Below are positions 26,933 to 49,727 of a stretch of 64,000 bases of DNA, in pieces (the stretch's first letter is position 1; each line of letters begins with the position of its first letter). The position numbers were made by a program, and so were the translations under genes. Below the pieces are notes generated by a model. That model saw only the letters and a list, made by a program, of their open reading frames with translations, was not told where the DNA came from and searched no databases. This DNA comes from Candidatus Latescibacterota bacterium (GTDB taxonomy: Bacteria > Latescibacterota > UBA2968 > UBA8231): positions 2,350,936-2,414,935 of the forward strand of contig CBDCNM010000002.1 in assembly GCA_965219385.1 (NCBI GenBank), written 5' to 3'.

Positions 26933-27864
26933 GAGGCCGTCTGAAAACCATGTTTATTCTAAGCGAGTCGTTTGAGTAGCAAGTAAATCATGGCGATCTG
27001 AATCAACGCTTCGCTGTGGCGGGTCAACACTTCATAATCTCGGGCATGCCGACGAACGTTCATCAACCACGCAAAGGTTCGTTCGACCACCCACCGTCGT
27101 TTGAGCGGTGTAAATCCATTTCCTTGTTTAGCGACGACTTCCAAGTCGATCTTATGCGTCTTTTTTAAGTCGGCTACCCACCCTTTGAGATCGGCTCCCG
27201 CAGAGCCGCCATCAACCCACAGCTTACGTAGCCTAGGTAGGCCGGGCGCAACATAGCGGGTCAACACCCGCTTCAAGCCGTCCCGATCGCCCACATCGGC
27301 GGCGGTGACTTCCACCGGCCGGATCCATCCCAAGGTATCTACCCACAGGTGACGTTTGCGTCCTTTGATCTTTTTGCCGGCGTCATAACCGATTGTTTCT
27401 CCTTGGGTTGCCGTCTTGATGGTCTGGCTATCGACCCCGCCGGCCGACGGGGTTGATAGCCGACCCTGCCGGCGGCGTTCCCGCTGGGTGAGTCGATCCA
27501 ATATCGGCGGCCAGACCCCTTGTAGGCTCCAGCGGCGAAAGTAGTCATACACCGTTTTCCACGGCCCCAAACTCGCGGGTAACAAAGCCCAAGGACAGCC
27601 GGTCTTGGTCAGATACAAAAGACCATTGATGATCTGGCGTGGATCCCGCCGCGGGCGGCCCGGCCCGCCAGGAGGCCACGTCGAGGCGGGTAGTAACGGC
27701 TTGATTAGACGCCATTGCGCATCGGTTAGATCGGTGGCATATTCGTCGGCAGGCGTACTCATCATAGGGGCCTTTCTATTCAGATTTTGTGGTGAAACCT
27801 GAATATGGCCCGATGAGTACGCCGATTCAAATACGGGCTACATCAAGAGTTTTCAGACGGCCTC
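26933..27864 (-). mobile_element. IS5-family (IS1031-like) insertion sequence
   Basis: Perfect 16-bp terminal IRs GAGGCCGTCTGAAAAC (26933-26948) / GTTTTCAGACGGCCTC (27849-27864); TNA flanks TTA and TGA. Confidence 0.9.
26959..27765 (-). CDS. IS5-family transposase (probably degenerate)
   Basis: Y.TDLTDAQW, DSQT, GYDAGKKIKGRKRH, RWVVERTFAW. Confidence 0.9.
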   Translation of the reverse strand: MMSTPADEYATDLTDAQWRLIKPLLPASTWPPGGPGRPRRDPRQIINGLLYLTKTGCPWALLPASLGPWKTVYDYFRRWSLQGVWPPILDRLTQRERRRQGRLSTPSAGGVDSQTIKTATQGETIGYDAGKKIKGRKRHLWVDTLGWIRPVEVTAADVGDRDGLKRVLTRYVAPGLPRLRKLWVDGGSAGADLKGWVADLKKTHKIDLEVVAKQGNGFTPLKRRWVVERTFAWLMNVRRHARDYEVLTRHSEALIQIAMIYLLLKRLA

Positions 27865-28048
27865 TGAAGCTTTTTCCTCGGTTTCGAGCCCCCGGCAAAA
27901 TGCCTGGCTGGTCTTCCATGGTCGGTCTTTTTAGGGACTCTCAACCCGCACTGCGTGCGGTACATTTCCGCATAGGACGATATTAAACCCTGTGGCTGGC
28001 AAGCAAGTCGCGGGTTTTTTTGTTCGCGCCCATTTCAATGTCGGTCTA

Positions 28049-29222
28049 CTAGTGTTGCGTCGTATAAATAACTTTACGAGATGGTGGTCATGTCGTAGGT
28101 TTCTCTTACCACCCCTTCTGAAAGGAGAGATCTATGGCGATGGGGCGTCCGTTAACGCCGTTAGCGCTGAGTGCGTCGGCCCGAGCACAATTGGAATCGA
28201 TGGCCCAATCACGGAGTCTTCCACACGGGTTGGTGCGGCGAGCGGAGATCGTCCTTTGGGCCGCCGAAGGCTGGCCCCATGAAGCGGTCGCTGCAGCGGT
28301 GGGTGTGACGCGCGCTACGGTGGGCAAGTGGCGCCGGCGTTTTCTCGAAAACGGACTCCATGGCTTGCATGATGAACTGCGTTCAGGGGCGCCGCGATCA
28401 ATCACCGACGAGCAGGTGGCCGAGGTGGTATACAAGACGCTGAAGACCAAGCCCCAAGACCGAACCCAGTGGTCGGTGCGCTCCATGGGCGCGGAAACCG
28501 GCCTCACCAAGGACGCGGTGCATCGCATCGGGCGCACGTATGGTTTGCAGCCCCACCGACACAAGCACTTCAAGCTTTCCACCGATCCTTTCTTGGTCGA
28601 CAAAGTACGGGATATCGTCGGCTTATACATGCATCCCCCCGAGCACGCCCTGGTTTTATGCGTCGACGAGAAGAGCCAGATCCAGGCGTTGGAACGAAGT
28701 CAGCCCCTGTTGCCCCTGGGTCTGGGCTACGTGGAAGGGGTTACGCACGACTACAAGCGCCATGGCACCACCACTCTGTTTGCCGCCCTGGACGTGGCCA
28801 CCGGTGAAGTGATGACTCCGTGCAAGCCCCGTCATCGTCACCAGGAGTTCCTCCCGTTCCTACGCCACATCGAGGACAACGTGCCCCGCGGTCTCGACGT
28901 GCATCTCGTGGTTGACCATTACGCCACCCACAAGCATGCCAAGGTCAAAAAGTGGCTGGCGCGGCGCCCCCGATTTCACCTTCACTACACCCCCCCCTAT
29001 GCTTCGTGGCTCAACCAGGTGGAGATTGGGTTCAACATCATCACGCGCCAGGCGGTTCGGCGGCACTCGTTCCGCAAGGTAAGAGAGCGCATCGAGCGCA
29101 TCGAACGCTATACCGCCCAATGGAACGCCAACGCGCACCCTTTCGTATGGACGGCTACGGCCGATTCCATCCTCGCGAAAATCAAGAGACTTTGTGAACG
29201 AATCTCTACGACACAACACTAG
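28049..29222 (+). mobile_element. IS630-family insertion sequence
   Basis: Imperfect IRs CTAGTGTTGCGTCGTA / TACGACACAACACTAG; TA at both ends. Confidence 0.88.
28134..29222 (+). CDS. IS630-family transposase (probably degenerate)
   Basis: HTH region, VDEKSQIQAL, RHGTTTLFAAL, SWLNQVE, PFVWT; AGGAG RBS. Confidence 0.92.
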   Translation: MAMGRPLTPLALSASARAQLESMAQSRSLPHGLVRRAEIVLWAAEGWPHEAVAAAVGVTRATVGKWRRRFLENGLHGLHDELRSGAPRSITDEQVAEVVYKTLKTKPQDRTQWSVRSMGAETGLTKDAVHRIGRTYGLQPHRHKHFKLSTDPFLVDKVRDIVGLYMHPPEHALVLCVDEKSQIQALERSQPLLPLGLGYVEGVTHDYKRHGTTTLFAALDVATGEVMTPCKPRHRHQEFLPFLRHIEDNVPRGLDVHLVVDHYATHKHAKVKKWLARRPRFHLHYTPPYASWLNQVEIGFNIITRQAVRRHSFRKVRERIERIERYTAQWNANAHPFVWTATADSILAKIKRLCERISTTQH

Positions 29223-30198
29223 CCTGGATTATTCACAAATCGCTAAGTTGAGCGGGATGCACGCGATGTTTTAAGTGCCCCGGGGCCTTTTCCGTGCTCG
29301 TGTGCCTGTCGAGTCCAGGTTTTGCATCGGTACCTGATCGCAGGTCCCCGTTTCAGGCGGTATGTCGTCGGGTTTGAACACAGTACTCCCTTGGTTTTGC
29401 GGCTGATCGTCGGGTCGAAGGTGGCCGTCGCCCATGGCGTGCCTTGCAGGCCGATCTGCTGGATGGCGTGCATGAGCACGGCGGCGGCGCTGTGCAGAAA
29501 AAGACGGAATTGATGGGCCGCAAATCGATGGCAGGAGGTGCGGTCCGAATGCAGGAAGGTCTTGTGATTCTTGATGAATCCTTCCGCCCGTCCGCGTGCA
29601 CAGTAGACCTTCTCATACAAGAGCTTGGGGGTTCGATCCCGGATGTTGGTGGTTACAAAGCGAGGATTGGCTTTGCCCTGGGTAACCTCGGCCTTGTAGA
29701 GGATGCGCTGCGGGTGGTTCCAGCTCTTCGCCTGGTAGTCGAAGCTGGAAAAGAGCCGCACCGGCTCCTCTTCAGCGCTCTCCTCCGCCTGGGCCAGCGC
29801 CGGCTCCATCCAGCGGCGCCCCGAGTTCGTGCAGCTTGGAGTTAGGAGCCTGGCCCAGGATAAACGACAGGCGGTACTCTTCGCACACGTCGTGGACCTC
29901 CGGGGGGCTGAAGTGCGAGTCTGCCCGCAACGGGATCTGCACCTTGGGCCACGCCTTCACAATCGCCGCGAAAACGCGCCGCAGAATCGCCGCAGAATCG
30001 CGGCCCTTGCTGCGCCCCATGGGTGATATCCTTGGAGGCATCGATGTCGACGATGAGCTTCTTCGGCGGCTTCTCGTAGGAAGCGATAAACGTGTCCAGC
30101 AACGAGCGCGCAAGATGGTTTGTGGTTTGTCTACCCCTAACTTAGGGATAAACAACCATTTGTACAGGGGACATCGCATTTTTTATGAATAATTCAGG
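29223..30198 (-). mobile_element. IS1380-family element remnant, internally deleted and frameshifted
   Basis: IRs CCTGGATTATTCACAAA (29223) and reverse-complement CCTGAATTATTCATAAA (30198); transposase fragments DIDASKDITHGAQQG, LRADSHF, YCARGRAE, SDRTSCHRF in different frames. Confidence 0.85.
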
Positions 30199-30462: not shown

Positions 30463-33400
30463 ATGGCGTCTGAACGACTTAAGCAAACGGCTGGTACTGC
30501 CCCGGAGAGCGTACATCGGCTCGAAGATTTGCTGGCCCAGCTCGAAGGGCATGGGCTCAAGCGCAATGGCCACGACCAAGAACTGGCCAGAGCCGCCGAT
30601 GCCGAAACCTATTACGGGGACAATGATCTGGCCATTGATGTGCTGCGCAACAAGTACCTGGCTCCGGGAGAGACCGGTCCCCTGCAGATGTGGGATCGGA
30701 TTGCCCGGGCCATGGCCTCGGTGGAGCACGACAAGGAGTACTGGTACGATCGCTTCTTTTCGGTTTTGCGGGACTTCAAATTCATCCCCGGCGGCCGGGT
30801 GATGCACGGGGCCGGGCGCGATGAAGCCCGCCGCAAACCGACCCTCTCCAATTGTTATGTCATTCCCATCGAAGAAGACAGCCTCGAGGACATCTACCGC
30901 TGCTTGAGCGAATCGGCCATGGTCTACCGCACCGGCGGCGGCGTGGGCACGGATCTGTCGCTCCTGCGTCCAAAGGGCGCTTCGGTCAATGCCACGGTGG
31001 ACCAGTCACCTGGCTGTACTGCGTTCATGAACCTGTTGAGCGAGAGCACCAACGCCGTGTCACAGGCCGGCCGGCGCGGGGCGCTGATGCTAACCTTGCG
31101 GGTGGATCATCCCGACATAGAGGATTTCATCACCATCAAGAACGACTCCAACCGCACCAAAGTGCAGTACGCCAACATCAGCGTGCTGATCACCCATGAG
31201 TTTATGCAGGCGGTACTCGGGGACAAGGAATTCGATCTGAAGTGGAACGGCAAGGTTTTCCGCACCGTACAGGCCAGGGAATTGTGGGACAAGATCATCG
31301 CCAATGCCCACGCCAGCGCCGAGCCGGGCATCATTTTCTGGGACACCATGAAGGAATACCACAATGTGGAATACGCCAATCCGTTGACCAGTACTAATCC
31401 GTGCGTTACCGGAGATACCCTGGTCTATACGCGGAGCGGGCTCTACCCCATTGCCGAGCTTTGTGAAGCCGGTGCCGCAGCGGATTTGACCCTGGACTCG
31501 CGCTTCGAGGCCGGTTCGGTTGGCCCGGGCCTGACCCCTTTCCGGACCGGGATCAAGCCGGTGTTCCGGGTGCAGACGCGCGAGGGCTACGAGGTCAGGA
31601 TCACAGAGGCCCACCGCTTTATGACCGAGCGGGGTTGGGTCTGCGCCGGCGATCTGGAACCGGGAGACCGGCTCCACATCCTGGACACCAAGGGCGGCTT
31701 TGGCGACAAGGGCACCGCGGCCGAGGGGCGAGTCCAGGGCTGGTTGATCGGGGACGGTCCCATCACGGGTGAATCGGGTCATGGAGCCGAGCGGGGCTTG
31801 TGGGACCAGGATCGCGTCGAGCGGGCCGACCGTTTCGCCGCGGATGTGAACCAGGTTCTGGGCCAGGATCCGGAGACGGTGCACTATCCGGTGGGCGTGG
31901 TCCAGGTAGAGGAGCGGGATCTGGCCATTGTCGGTTCCATTCGCCGGCGCGAGCTGGTGGCCGATCAGTACGGGGTGACTGCCGAGAACGAGCTCGCCGG
32001 CCTGCCCAAGGCCGCCTTGCGGGCCTCCGAGGGATTCCAGCAGGGACTGTTGCAGGCCCTGTTCACCGCCGATGGGCACGTGGCTGACCACCCAAAAGGG
32101 GGTTCGGTGCGTCTGACCTCGGTCTCGCTGGAACTGCTCAGGGACGTGCAGAGGATGTTGCTCAACTTTGGCATTGCTTCGCGGATCTACAAGGAGCGCT
32201 ACCCGGAGCGCGAGGTCGAGATCAAAGGGCGCACCTACCAGAGCCGGGAGGTTCACGACCTGGTGATCGGCCGCGGCAACCTGCTGGAGTTCGTCGAGGA
32301 GGTCGGCTTTCTGACCACTGTCAAGCAGGACACCCTGATCAGTCGGCTGGGCGAATGCGGTGGACGCGGTTCCTACCGGGAGAAGTTCACGGCGCGCTTC
32401 GAGGCCCTGGTGCCCGAAGGCGAGGAGATGGTCTACGATCTGACCGAACCCCTCACCCACTCCTTCGCGGCCAACGGCTTTGTGGTCCACAATTGCGGCG
32501 AGCAACCTCTCGCTTCGTACACCGCCTGTAACCTGGGAAATCTGAACCTCGTCAAGTTCGTGGATCAGGGCGGCAACCTGGATTTCGACGCATTGGCCGA
32601 CGCCACGGCCGTATCTACCCGCTTCCTGGACGATGTAATCGAGTACAACATGGACAACCACGCCCTGTCCAAAATCCGCGAGGCCGTATCCTCGGACCGC
32701 CGGGTGGGCATGGGGATCACGGGACTGGCCGATGCCCTGGTGCTAATGCAGCTCAAGTACGACTCGGCCGAGGCCCTGGAGGCGGTGGACAAAATCATGC
32801 AGACCCTTTGTCACAACGCCTATGAGACCTCGGTCGAGCTGGCCCGGGAGAAGGGCGCTTTTCCGCTTTTCGAGTGGGAAGGGTTGTCCCGCAGCAAGTT
32901 CATCCAGGGCCTGCCCCAGAGCCTGAGGGGCAAGATCGAGAAATTCGGCCTGCGCAACTGCACCCTGATCACCATGCCGCCGGTCGGCACGGGCTCAATC
33001 GTAGCGGAGACTACGTCGGGCATCGAGCCGATTTTCTGCACCAGCTACAATCGTCGCGTCAAACAGGCCGACGGCGAGACCTTCCGCGACTACAAGGTCT
33101 ACCATCCGCTGATCGAGGAGGTTTTCGGCGACGACGAGAACCTGCCCGACTACGTGGTGACCGCGCATCAGATTGACCCCTTTTTCCGGGTGAAGATGCA
33201 GGGCGTCATCCAGAAGTACACCGACAGCAGCATCTCCTCCACCATCAACCTGGCGGAAGATATCGCGGTCGAGACCGTGGCCGATATCTACATCACGGCC
33301 TACGAGGAAGGCCTCAAGGGTGTGACCGTGTACCGGGAAGGCAGCCGCCAGGGCATTCTGCAAACCGAGGATACCCAGAAGAAGAAAGAAGAGGAAGCGC

Positions 33401-33927
33401 AGCCGGAGGAGCCCGAAGAGATCGCACACGGGCGCCATCCACGGCGCCGTCCCGCGGTTACGCGCGGTGTTACCGAACGTATCCGCACGGGCGAGGGCAA
33501 GATCTACGTCACCATCAACGAAGACGAGCAGGGTCTGTGCGAGGTTTTCAGTACCATTGGCAAGGCCGGCGGCAATGCCGCGGCCCAGTCCGAAGCCATC
33601 AGCCGCCTGATTTCCCTGGCTCTGCGCTCGGATATTGATCCGCAGGAGATCATCAATGAGTTGAAGGGGATTTCCGGTCCTAATCCGGTGTGGGAAAACG
33701 GAGAGCTCATTCTCTCCACGCCGGATGCCATTGGCAAGGCCATAGAGCGCCATTTGCAGCGTCGAGAGGAGGGCAGAATGGTCAAGGCGGGGGAAGCCGT
33801 TGCCGCTGTTCCAGTGGCATCGGAGGGTGAGTTCAAAACCACGATCACCTGTCCGGAGTGCGGTGTCTCCGTGATGCACGAAAGTGGTTGCCTCACCTGC
33901 AAACACTGCGGCTGGTCCAAGTGTTGA
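30463..33927 (+). CDS. nrdJ: class II (B12-dependent) ribonucleotide reductase with intein and C-terminal TSCPD/Zn-ribbon
   Basis: SNCYV, RRGALM, ANISV, EPG..F.D, TNP|intein|CGEQPL, RRVGMG, PP.GT, SGIEP, KGVTVYR; CPEC...CLTCKHCGWSKC. Confidence 0.95.
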   Translation: MASERLKQTAGTAPESVHRLEDLLAQLEGHGLKRNGHDQELARAADAETYYGDNDLAIDVLRNKYLAPGETGPLQMWDRIARAMASVEHDKEYWYDRFFSVLRDFKFIPGGRVMHGAGRDEARRKPTLSNCYVIPIEEDSLEDIYRCLSESAMVYRTGGGVGTDLSLLRPKGASVNATVDQSPGCTAFMNLLSESTNAVSQAGRRGALMLTLRVDHPDIEDFITIKNDSNRTKVQYANISVLITHEFMQAVLGDKEFDLKWNGKVFRTVQARELWDKIIANAHASAEPGIIFWDTMKEYHNVEYANPLTSTNPCVTGDTLVYTRSGLYPIAELCEAGAAADLTLDSRFEAGSVGPGLTPFRTGIKPVFRVQTREGYEVRITEAHRFMTERGWVCAGDLEPGDRLHILDTKGGFGDKGTAAEGRVQGWLIGDGPITGESGHGAERGLWDQDRVERADRFAADVNQVLGQDPETVHYPVGVVQVEERDLAIVGSIRRRELVADQYGVTAENELAGLPKAALRASEGFQQGLLQALFTADGHVADHPKGGSVRLTSVSLELLRDVQRMLLNFGIASRIYKERYPEREVEIKGRTYQSREVHDLVIGRGNLLEFVEEVGFLTTVKQDTLISRLGECGGRGSYREKFTARFEALVPEGEEMVYDLTEPLTHSFAANGFVVHNCGEQPLASYTACNLGNLNLVKFVDQGGNLDFDALADATAVSTRFLDDVIEYNMDNHALSKIREAVSSDRRVGMGITGLADALVLMQLKYDSAEALEAVDKIMQTLCHNAYETSVELAREKGAFPLFEWEGLSRSKFIQGLPQSLRGKIEKFGLRNCTLITMPPVGTGSIVAETTSGIEPIFCTSYNRRVKQADGETFRDYKVYHPLIEEVFGDDENLPDYVVTAHQIDPFFRVKMQGVIQKYTDSSISSTINLAEDIAVETVADIYITAYEEGLKGVTVYREGSRQGILQTEDTQKKKEEEAQPEEPEEIAHGRHPRRRPAVTRGVTERIRTGEGKIYVTINEDEQGLCEVFSTIGKAGGNAAAQSEAISRLISLALRSDIDPQEIINELKGISGPNPVWENGELILSTPDAIGKAIERHLQRREEGRMVKAGEAVAAVPVASEGEFKTTITCPECGVSVMHESGCLTCKHCGWSKC
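31402..32493 (+). mobile_element. intein (364 aa) with LAGLIDADG homing endonuclease domain at the NP/CGE active site
   Basis: Starts CVTGDT, block B TEAH, GWLIGDG and LQALFTADG motifs, VYDLT, ends HN followed by Cys+1. Confidence 0.95.
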
Positions 33928-43792: not shown

Positions 43793-44051
43793 CTCGCTAA
43801 ACTCCTAGAAAATTCCCGGTGAGCCCCGAGCGCGAGCGCAAAAGCAGCGGACAAGGCGGGACAGGATCGAGAATACTTGTATCGCAATGGGGGACCTTGT
43901 GTAATTCATCGTAAAATATAGCAGGATCGGCAATTTTTTCAATCTTCACGAGGAATTTCTACCCCGATCCCTCCATCCTTGCCTGCTGCACATCAGTACA
44001 CTATATTCAAAATCTTGTACCTGCTCACCCTCCGACTTCCCAATAGAGGAT

Positions 44052-49727
<5,676 letters not shown>

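Follow-up and report, generated by a model that had tools for sequence, protein, structure and literature searches.

The 64,000-nucleotide stretch of a sponge-dwelling Candidatus Latescibacterota bacterium analysed here (GenBank assembly GCA_965219385.1, contig CBDCNM010000002.1, positions 2,350,936 to 2,414,935 of the forward strand; called the window below) carries an insertion sequence (IS) of the IS630 family whose transposase gene has lost conserved codons through one particular class of point mutation. Comparison with relatives from other genomes shows that the IS630 copies of this host gained many A:T>C:G transversions at adenines that follow a C or a G, above all CCA>CCC (TGG>GGG), and that over the same period they gained almost no excess of other substitution types. 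The explanation that we favour, with moderate confidence, is that IS copies freed of selection record an A:T>C:G pressure of the oxidised-dGTP type in their host, whether persistent or episodic.

The host genome amounts to 5.81 Mb in two contigs and contains seven IS630 copies at 98.5-100% identity (the young copies), four older copies, three of them at 87-90% and one at 75% identity, and one short fragment; where ten copies are counted below, the 75% copy is left out. The external comparison set consisted of eight copies of this IS at 62-92% protein identity, taken from seven further genomes that belong to the host's bacterial family. Changes were polarised by the majority state of the external relatives at each alignment column, and counts on the window copy required the agreement of at least four of five external sequences, or of five of six under a stricter rule. 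Throughout, A>C stands for A>C and T>G pooled over both strands.

For the window copy, A>C accounts for 17 of the 51 polarised changes (13 of 35 under the stricter rule); at first and second codon positions its share is 16 of 27 and at third positions 1 of 21, the dominant changes there being C>T (11) and C>G (7). When the ten closer copies were pooled and each site was counted once, the 58 changes at first and second positions comprised 28 A>C, 14 C>T, 7 A>G, 6 C>G, 3 C>A and no A>T, and third positions gave a single A>C among 47. By contrast, the same two codon positions of four external relatives yielded 3/15, 2/24, 5/55 and 11/77 A>C changes, or 21/171 compared with 28/58 in the host genome (Fisher p=5e-8). 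Once A>C is subtracted, the ratio of changes at first and second positions to those at third positions is 30:46, or 0.65, with controls at 0.45-0.68. The protein-changing excess beyond the ordinary, selection-filtered divergence of a transposase is entirely A>C. On the stem of the young clade, defined by changes that every young copy carries and that G018, a genome of a different genus, lacks, seven of the eight changes at first and second positions belong to this class. A strict count restricted to derived states private to the young clade gives just 3/19, since recurrent hits in other lineages take many A>C sites out of it. As for third positions and non-coding sites, one A>C was seen where 2.8 would be expected given the sequence context (P=0.23), a shortage that does not reach significance and does not speak against neutrality; conserved A/T sites are few at third positions.

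When bacterial DNA decays neutrally, C>T and further GC->AT changes usually predominate. An earlier note on this DNA, made from its letters alone, had described the transposase as decaying almost only by A>C and T>G; this stands for the protein-changing excess, as the stem of the young clade illustrates, and fails when all changes are taken together, third positions being led by C>T. GC-biased gene conversion was considered separately and ruled out, A>G being rare at first and second positions (7 vs 28 A>C).

The young copies differ from one another by seven variable substitutions, four of which are A>C or T>G (28180, 28186, 28231 and 28258), and three of these four pass the polarising filter. 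In a four-gamete comparison read off the alignment, these four sites mutually conflict on any tree, whereas the other three variable sites are free of conflict. The A>C process acted inside the host genome. The full frame survives in four of the seven young copies; in the remaining three it is interrupted by single-base indels within short homopolymers and not by stops. The young copies also differ by a 9-bp in-frame tandem unit, GAGCGCATC, located at window positions 29085-29102 and present twice in four copies and three times in three; its distribution conflicts with the other markers among these copies, and the extra unit is also found in one contig of X3, a public sequencing run.

Regarding the sequence context, the 29 distinct A>C sites of the ten copies are preceded by C in 19 cases, by G in nine, by A in one and by T in none, whereas the 367 A/T sites taken as background are preceded by C (130), G (122), A (75) or T (40). 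CA is thus enriched (p=9e-4), and CCA more strongly so, with 13 of 29 sites compared with 60 of 367 (p=1.5e-4). On the 3' side the bases are G (13), A (7), C (6) and T (3). The CA>CC or TG>GG context reported in the earlier note was therefore recovered, 28 of the 29 sites having a C or a G on the 5' side, and so was its action on both strands: the mutated A lies on the coding strand at 20 of 29 sites, compared with 193 of 367 in the background (p=0.09). A diversity-generating retroelement was ruled out, as both strands are hit. The same sites were hit more than once, since the copy at 75% identity shares six A>C sites with the young clade where 1.5 would be expected (p=0.002); it should be noted that C>T sites also overlap between lineages, with four observed and 1.9 expected.

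The nine codons singled out in the earlier note all read as it described and lie inside an intact open reading frame (ORF) (Table 1). The codons that it expected are indeed present in external relatives at all nine sites, in all eight relatives at six of them, and a single A>C or T>G change separates each of the nine from a codon of the relatives. The loss of consensus residues from a transposase whose frame stays open is also reflected in the IS630 hidden Markov model (HMM), which the window protein matches at 248 bits compared with 269-276 bits for three relatives. One of the replaced residues stands beside the second Asp of the VVD motif, which we take from the IS630/Tc1 literature to be catalytic. 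The frame survives the loss of Trp133, Trp299, Asn262, Gln229, Gln241 and others because A>C and T>G changes create stop codons only from TAT and TTA. Such steps thus almost never produce a stop, which is why conserved Trp, Asn, Gln, Thr and Leu codons can be lost from a frame that remains open.

Apart from these losses, the element is an ordinary IS630-family insertion sequence, although one that is losing function. Like other members of the family (IS630/Tc1/mariner superfamily), it is about 1.17 kb long, has terminal inverted repeats and encodes a single DDE_3 transposase with N-terminal helix-turn-helix domains; the protein matches NF033545 (IS630) at 248.4 bits for a cut-off of 100 and PF13358 at 70.8 bits. 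Each of the seven young copies has TA at either end within CTAG, and in the alignment the boundary C-TAG...CTA-G delimits the seven young copies and three of the four older ones, each in a different flank. The IS630 copies are genuine insertions at a CTAG/TA target, which, together with the duplication of TA, we take to be typical of the family.

Table 1. Coordinates of the IS630 element, its derived sites and the adjoining IS genes in the window
Feature	Position	Strand	Observation
Complete IS630-family insertion sequence, ~1,174 bp, in CTAG/TA target	28049..29223	+	blastn against the whole genome: 10 copies end at these bases
Left terminal inverted repeat, 21 nt	28049..28069	+	Inverted pair I1, 86% complementary to 29202-29222
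Right terminal inverted repeat, holding the last codons and stop of the transposase gene	29202..29222	+	Inverted pair I1
Transposase ORF, 362 amino acids, open	28134..29222	+	Pfam DDE_3 and HTH_23/28/32/29; NCBIfam NF033545
TGG (Trp42)	28257..28259	+	T>G at 28258; Leu (TTG/CTG) in 6/8 external relatives; the 2 most distant have Met (ATG)
GGG (Gly133)	28530..28532	+	TGG (Trp) in 8/8 external relatives and all 4 older copies of the host genome
CAT (His167)	28632..28634	+	External relatives: AAT/AAC 5/8, CAT 2/8, GAC 1/8
CCG (Pro229)	28818..28820	+	CAG/CAA in 8/8 external relatives; identical A>C in three other lineages of the host genome
CCG (Pro241)	28854..28856	+	CAG/CAA in 7/8 external relatives
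CAT (His262), beside the second Asp of the VVD motif	28917..28919	+	AAT/AAC in 8/8 external relatives
CCC (Pro)	28995..28997	+	ACN (Thr) in 8/8 external relatives
GGG (Gly299)	29028..29030	+	TGG in 8/8 external relatives
CGC (Arg)	29088..29090	+	CTC/CTG/TTG (Leu) in 8/8 external relatives
Further derived A>C/T>G sites of the window copy	28165, 28186, 28206, 28278, 28359, 28492, 28707	+	Polarised alignment; absent from the list of the earlier note
IS5-family transposase gene next to the IS630 copy	26959..27765	-	DUF4096 and DDE_Tnp_1
IS1380-type transposase fragment directly right of the IS630 copy	29246..29956	-	DDE_Tnp_1_4, profile positions 264-389 of 435

An artefact of sequencing or assembly at CCA and TGG contexts could in principle imitate such a pattern, as A>C and T>G changes of this kind lengthen runs of C or G and the copies also differ by homopolymer-length indels. 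The public runs that carry the stretch are sponge metagenomes or runs labelled with coded host organisms; they were examined as k-mer contigs, possibly all stem from one platform, and one of them may be the source sample. Position 28530 is nevertheless G in the seven young copies and T in the four older ones, and position 28258 is G in five young copies and T in two. These are differences between copies whose surrounding sequence is the same, which excludes a deterministic basecalling error. Two studies contributed runs that contain the derived letters: at 28530 the derived G reaches a depth of ~65 out of 171 in X3 and of ~152 out of 2054 in X5, which belongs to another study, and at 28258 a depth of ~44 out of 111.5 in X3, the allele depths in X3 fitting the copy numbers. 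The left junction (27850-28052) was seen without difference in X5 and in a third run, X7; contigs of X7 lack the derived G at 28530, which is not evidence of absence as contigs drop variants. The known GGGT>GGGG hotspot, which is both Illumina-like and biological, is also a T>G change that lengthens a G run, but its orientation is opposite: the hotspot T comes after a run of three or more G, and the T of the IS630 sites stands before the G run (TGG>GGG), or the A behind the C run (CCA). The preprint describing this hotspot in bacteria reports that mutT strains lack such an enrichment (Cherry 2022, 10.1101/2022.10.28.514265). On these grounds we regard an artefact as extremely unlikely.

The signature extends beyond the IS630 family. 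An unrelated IS5-family element of the same genome (NF033579, 300 bits) shows 17 A>C among 41 changes at first and second positions and 1 among 34 at third positions, where C>T amounts to 18; its A>C sites again lie mostly in CA/TG context and are polymorphic among its copies. Without polarisation, A-C differences make up 31% and 34% of the pairwise differences in the two IS families, compared with 14-27% in most other repeat or paralog families. The alignment of the IS701-type family proved too mixed for use. Synonymous sites of the host lean the same way. In 31 host ORFs of the window, four-fold sites prefer C to A after a C relative to after a T (log-odds 0.66) and G to T before a G relative to other positions (log-odds 0.95), and the mirror contexts are negative. 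For rpoB/rpoC, the latter measure places this genome first among 20 genomes of the family (0.80), with three others at 0.45-0.75. The second IS family and the four-fold sites both speak for a pressure exerted by the host on all its DNA. A further difference, that the IS630 ORF might be far richer in GC at third positions than host genes, was dropped: its GC content there is 0.727 compared with 0.774 for the window host ORFs, and the apparent effect was an artefact of using conserved sites and rpoB/rpoC.

Insertion of 8-oxo-dGTP opposite A is the only well-described process that gives a nearly pure A:T>C:G spectrum. MutY is known to take part in fixing 8-oxo-dGTP:A mispairs. Under a host-wide pressure of this type, 8-oxo-dGTP would be inserted opposite a template A, the mispair would then be fixed by MutY as A:T>C:G, and IS630 copies, which are presumably no longer under selection for their transposase, would retain the change. 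A strong next base pair may help the mispair to escape proofreading, or the template may be dislocated at the run.

The likeness to MutT deficiency lies in an excess that, at first and second codon positions of the IS630 copies, is almost purely A:T>C:G and affects both strands; over all sites this class does not dominate. Nearly pure A:T>C:G spectra are described for mutT or 8-oxo-dGTP mutagenesis in E. coli and P. aeruginosa in two reports (10.1101/2022.10.21.513255; PMC12318082). According to the same reports, DNA polymerase IV (Pol IV) enhances this mutagenesis (PMC12318082), the E. coli mutT context favours a 3' A, with 44% of changes in AA and hotspots at TAA and CAA (10.1101/2022.10.21.513255), and that of Pol IV favours a 5' G and/or a 3' C (PMC12318082). 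The differences weigh against our preferred explanation. The IS630 context, a 5' C or G and especially CCA/TGG, fits neither preference, and the CCA/TGG context matches none of the described ones. Besides, a MutT-like gene is kept. The search for mutT, mutM and mutY, named in the earlier note, revealed mutY (315 bits), fpg (281 bits) and, as best MutT match (TIGR00586, 97.6 bits), the C-terminal domain of the MutY ORF itself, with an intact Nudix box. A MutT-like domain was found in 23 of 26 genomes of the family. Gene loss thus does not explain the A>C pattern, since the host genome, no different from its relatives, has MutY, Fpg and the MutT-like Nudix domain in intact form. Ordinary MutY C-terminal domains are not known to contain the catalytic box. 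The MutY-Nudix fusion is a 433-amino-acid open frame outside the window (G000:C2:2717479-2718519), and the same arrangement occurs in most genomes of the family.

Other observations on the same genome also weigh against a host-wide pressure. Private changes of rpoB/rpoC comprise 1 A>C among 33 under a strict count at otherwise invariant sites, or 3 among 55 under a relaxed one; this share is among the lowest of the 20 genomes, and most changes are GC->AT. Repeated but non-mobile WD40 paralogs show 2 A>C among 70 singletons, the three largest young IS bursts none among eight (2 of 13 over all young bursts), and all other repeat families 21 among 156, 14 of which are IS5-type. The four-fold context bias can come from codon-pair selection, and three other genomes score nearly as high. 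The rpoB/rpoC result rules out a long-standing dominance of A>C and not an episode, for we estimate that no more than about three changes of this kind would stem from a burst of short duration. A lineage-wide GC-driving state, one of the two causes proposed in the earlier note, thus draws support from the IS5-family signature and the synonymous context bias and is opposed by rpoB/rpoC and by the intact repair genes. A search for neutral single-copy DNA that could be polarised found none: no close strain was detected in JGI metagenome contigs queried with the neighbouring NrdJ protein (best match 82% amino-acid identity, 49 loci), and no single-copy pseudogene turned up, with no split gene among 47 window ORFs and no stop codon in any of 6 sulfatase domains or of 62 ABC ATPase domains. 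The ABC ATPase domains are stop-free although about 514 kb (9%) of the genome is repeated (at least 80% identity over 400 bp). These repeats occupy 353 loci, and an IS701-type family with 51 loci and IS5-type families with 25 and 14 are the most numerous.

An alternative is that mutagenesis is restricted to mobile DNA, with cut-and-paste IS hypermutated at C/G-A sites, the rest of the chromosome spared and transposases disabled without stops. This could happen if error-prone repair, for instance by a Y-family polymerase using oxidised dGTP, refilled the donor site after excision, or if a dedicated process resembling repeat-induced point mutation (RIP) targeted transposons. Such a restriction would account for a signature that is strong in two cut-and-paste-type IS families and absent from rpoB/rpoC and WD40 paralogs, for the hitting of the same sites in independent lineages, and for four-gamete conflicts among young copies that concern A>C sites only. 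One report has Pol IV produce A>C by misincorporating oxidised guanine nucleotides (PMC12318082). G018 is also relevant here. This genome holds at least 23 full IS630 copies in graded subfamilies of 92-100% identity (with steps at 100, 98, 97, 96, 95 and 93%; L051-L070), a series suggestive of waves that followed one another as the master copy changed; their transposases stop two codons early and are otherwise intact. The G018 subfamilies differ by many A>C, 8 of 32 polymorphic changes at first and second positions, which is weaker than in the host genome and above the controls. However, G015, which contains many identical, intact and actively multiplying copies of the same IS, shows few A>C (3/15 at these positions), so that transposition alone is insufficient. 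Other substitution classes likewise overlap between lineages above expectation, the host synonymous sites lean in the direction of the IS copies, and restriction as such has no positive evidence, single-copy tests being weak. We therefore consider a restriction to mobile DNA unlikely. An apparent cluster of 10 A>C/T>G differences in another relative (L018, G010:C5) proved false, as it was produced by the last ~60 bp of that copy, which are unalignable to the family, probably owing to a truncation or junction and not to mutation.

RIP-like silencing of mobile DNA was the other cause proposed in the earlier note. In fungi, RIP introduces many C>T transitions at CpA into repeated mobile DNA and creates stops. 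The resemblance is that repeated mobile DNA bears numerous point mutations belonging to a single class and a single dinucleotide context; the differences are that the present changes are A>C after C and leave the frame open, and that the WD40 repeats and the youngest IS bursts are without the signature. Silencing of this type is thus not demonstrated by our data. We know of no mutagenesis system directed at mobile DNA in bacteria, and a literature search for such mutagenesis in bacteria found none.

The scars might also have been acquired elsewhere in the sponge community, in a symbiont that is a mutator or has a very high GC content, the scarred elements being transferred afterwards. The IS630 element does move horizontally, because its DNA identity reaches 88-92% between genomes of different genera whose rpoB/rpoC share only 70-75%, and contigs of sponge runs hold many variants of it at high depth. 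Yet A>C sites are polymorphic among seven near-identical copies inside the host genome, and also among the IS5-type copies, and four separate IS630 lineages together with an unrelated IS family would all need such a donor, which makes importation improbable. Selection on the protein, with the host or the element favouring amino-acid changes that tame the transposase, is suggested by the fact that all A>C changes but one alter the protein, that several conserved residues are hit and that the HMM score is down by 21-28 bits. Inactivation would nevertheless use all mutation types, including stops and frameshifts, and not one transversion in one context; third positions show little A>C because they offer few A/T targets, and this class is also the dominant one in an unrelated transposase. 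Selection therefore appears very improbable. Between these alternatives, a host pressure recorded by IS copies remains the explanation to which we give most weight.

Regarding the neighbourhood of the element, three IS types adjoin in window positions 26959-29956, namely the IS5-family gene, the IS630 copy and the IS1380-type fragment, and the boundary between the last two lies at CTAG. The right flank of the IS630 copy, formed by the IS1380-type fragment, is found again at C2:12315-12496. Further along the window, positions 30463-33927 encode a class II-type ribonucleotide reductase of 1,154 amino acids, of which metagenome relatives match about 790 codons; judging from this comparison, it seems to contain an insert of about 360 amino acids, probably an intein. 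An ORF of 1,940 amino acids at 43905-49724 contains the UvrA interaction and DNA-binding domains in duplicate and looks like a doubled or fused UvrA.

Taken together, these results indicate that a transposase can wear down functionally while its frame stays open, a situation that misleads annotation relying on intact ORFs. If the bias is host-wide, this bacterium would provide a rare case of a natural GC-driving mutational bias, which bears on the origin of GC-rich genomes. Were the bias confined to mobile DNA, it would be the first sign of transposon-aimed mutagenesis in bacteria, that is, a bacterial counterpart of RIP based on a different chemistry, arising either as a by-product of gap repair or as dedicated silencing.

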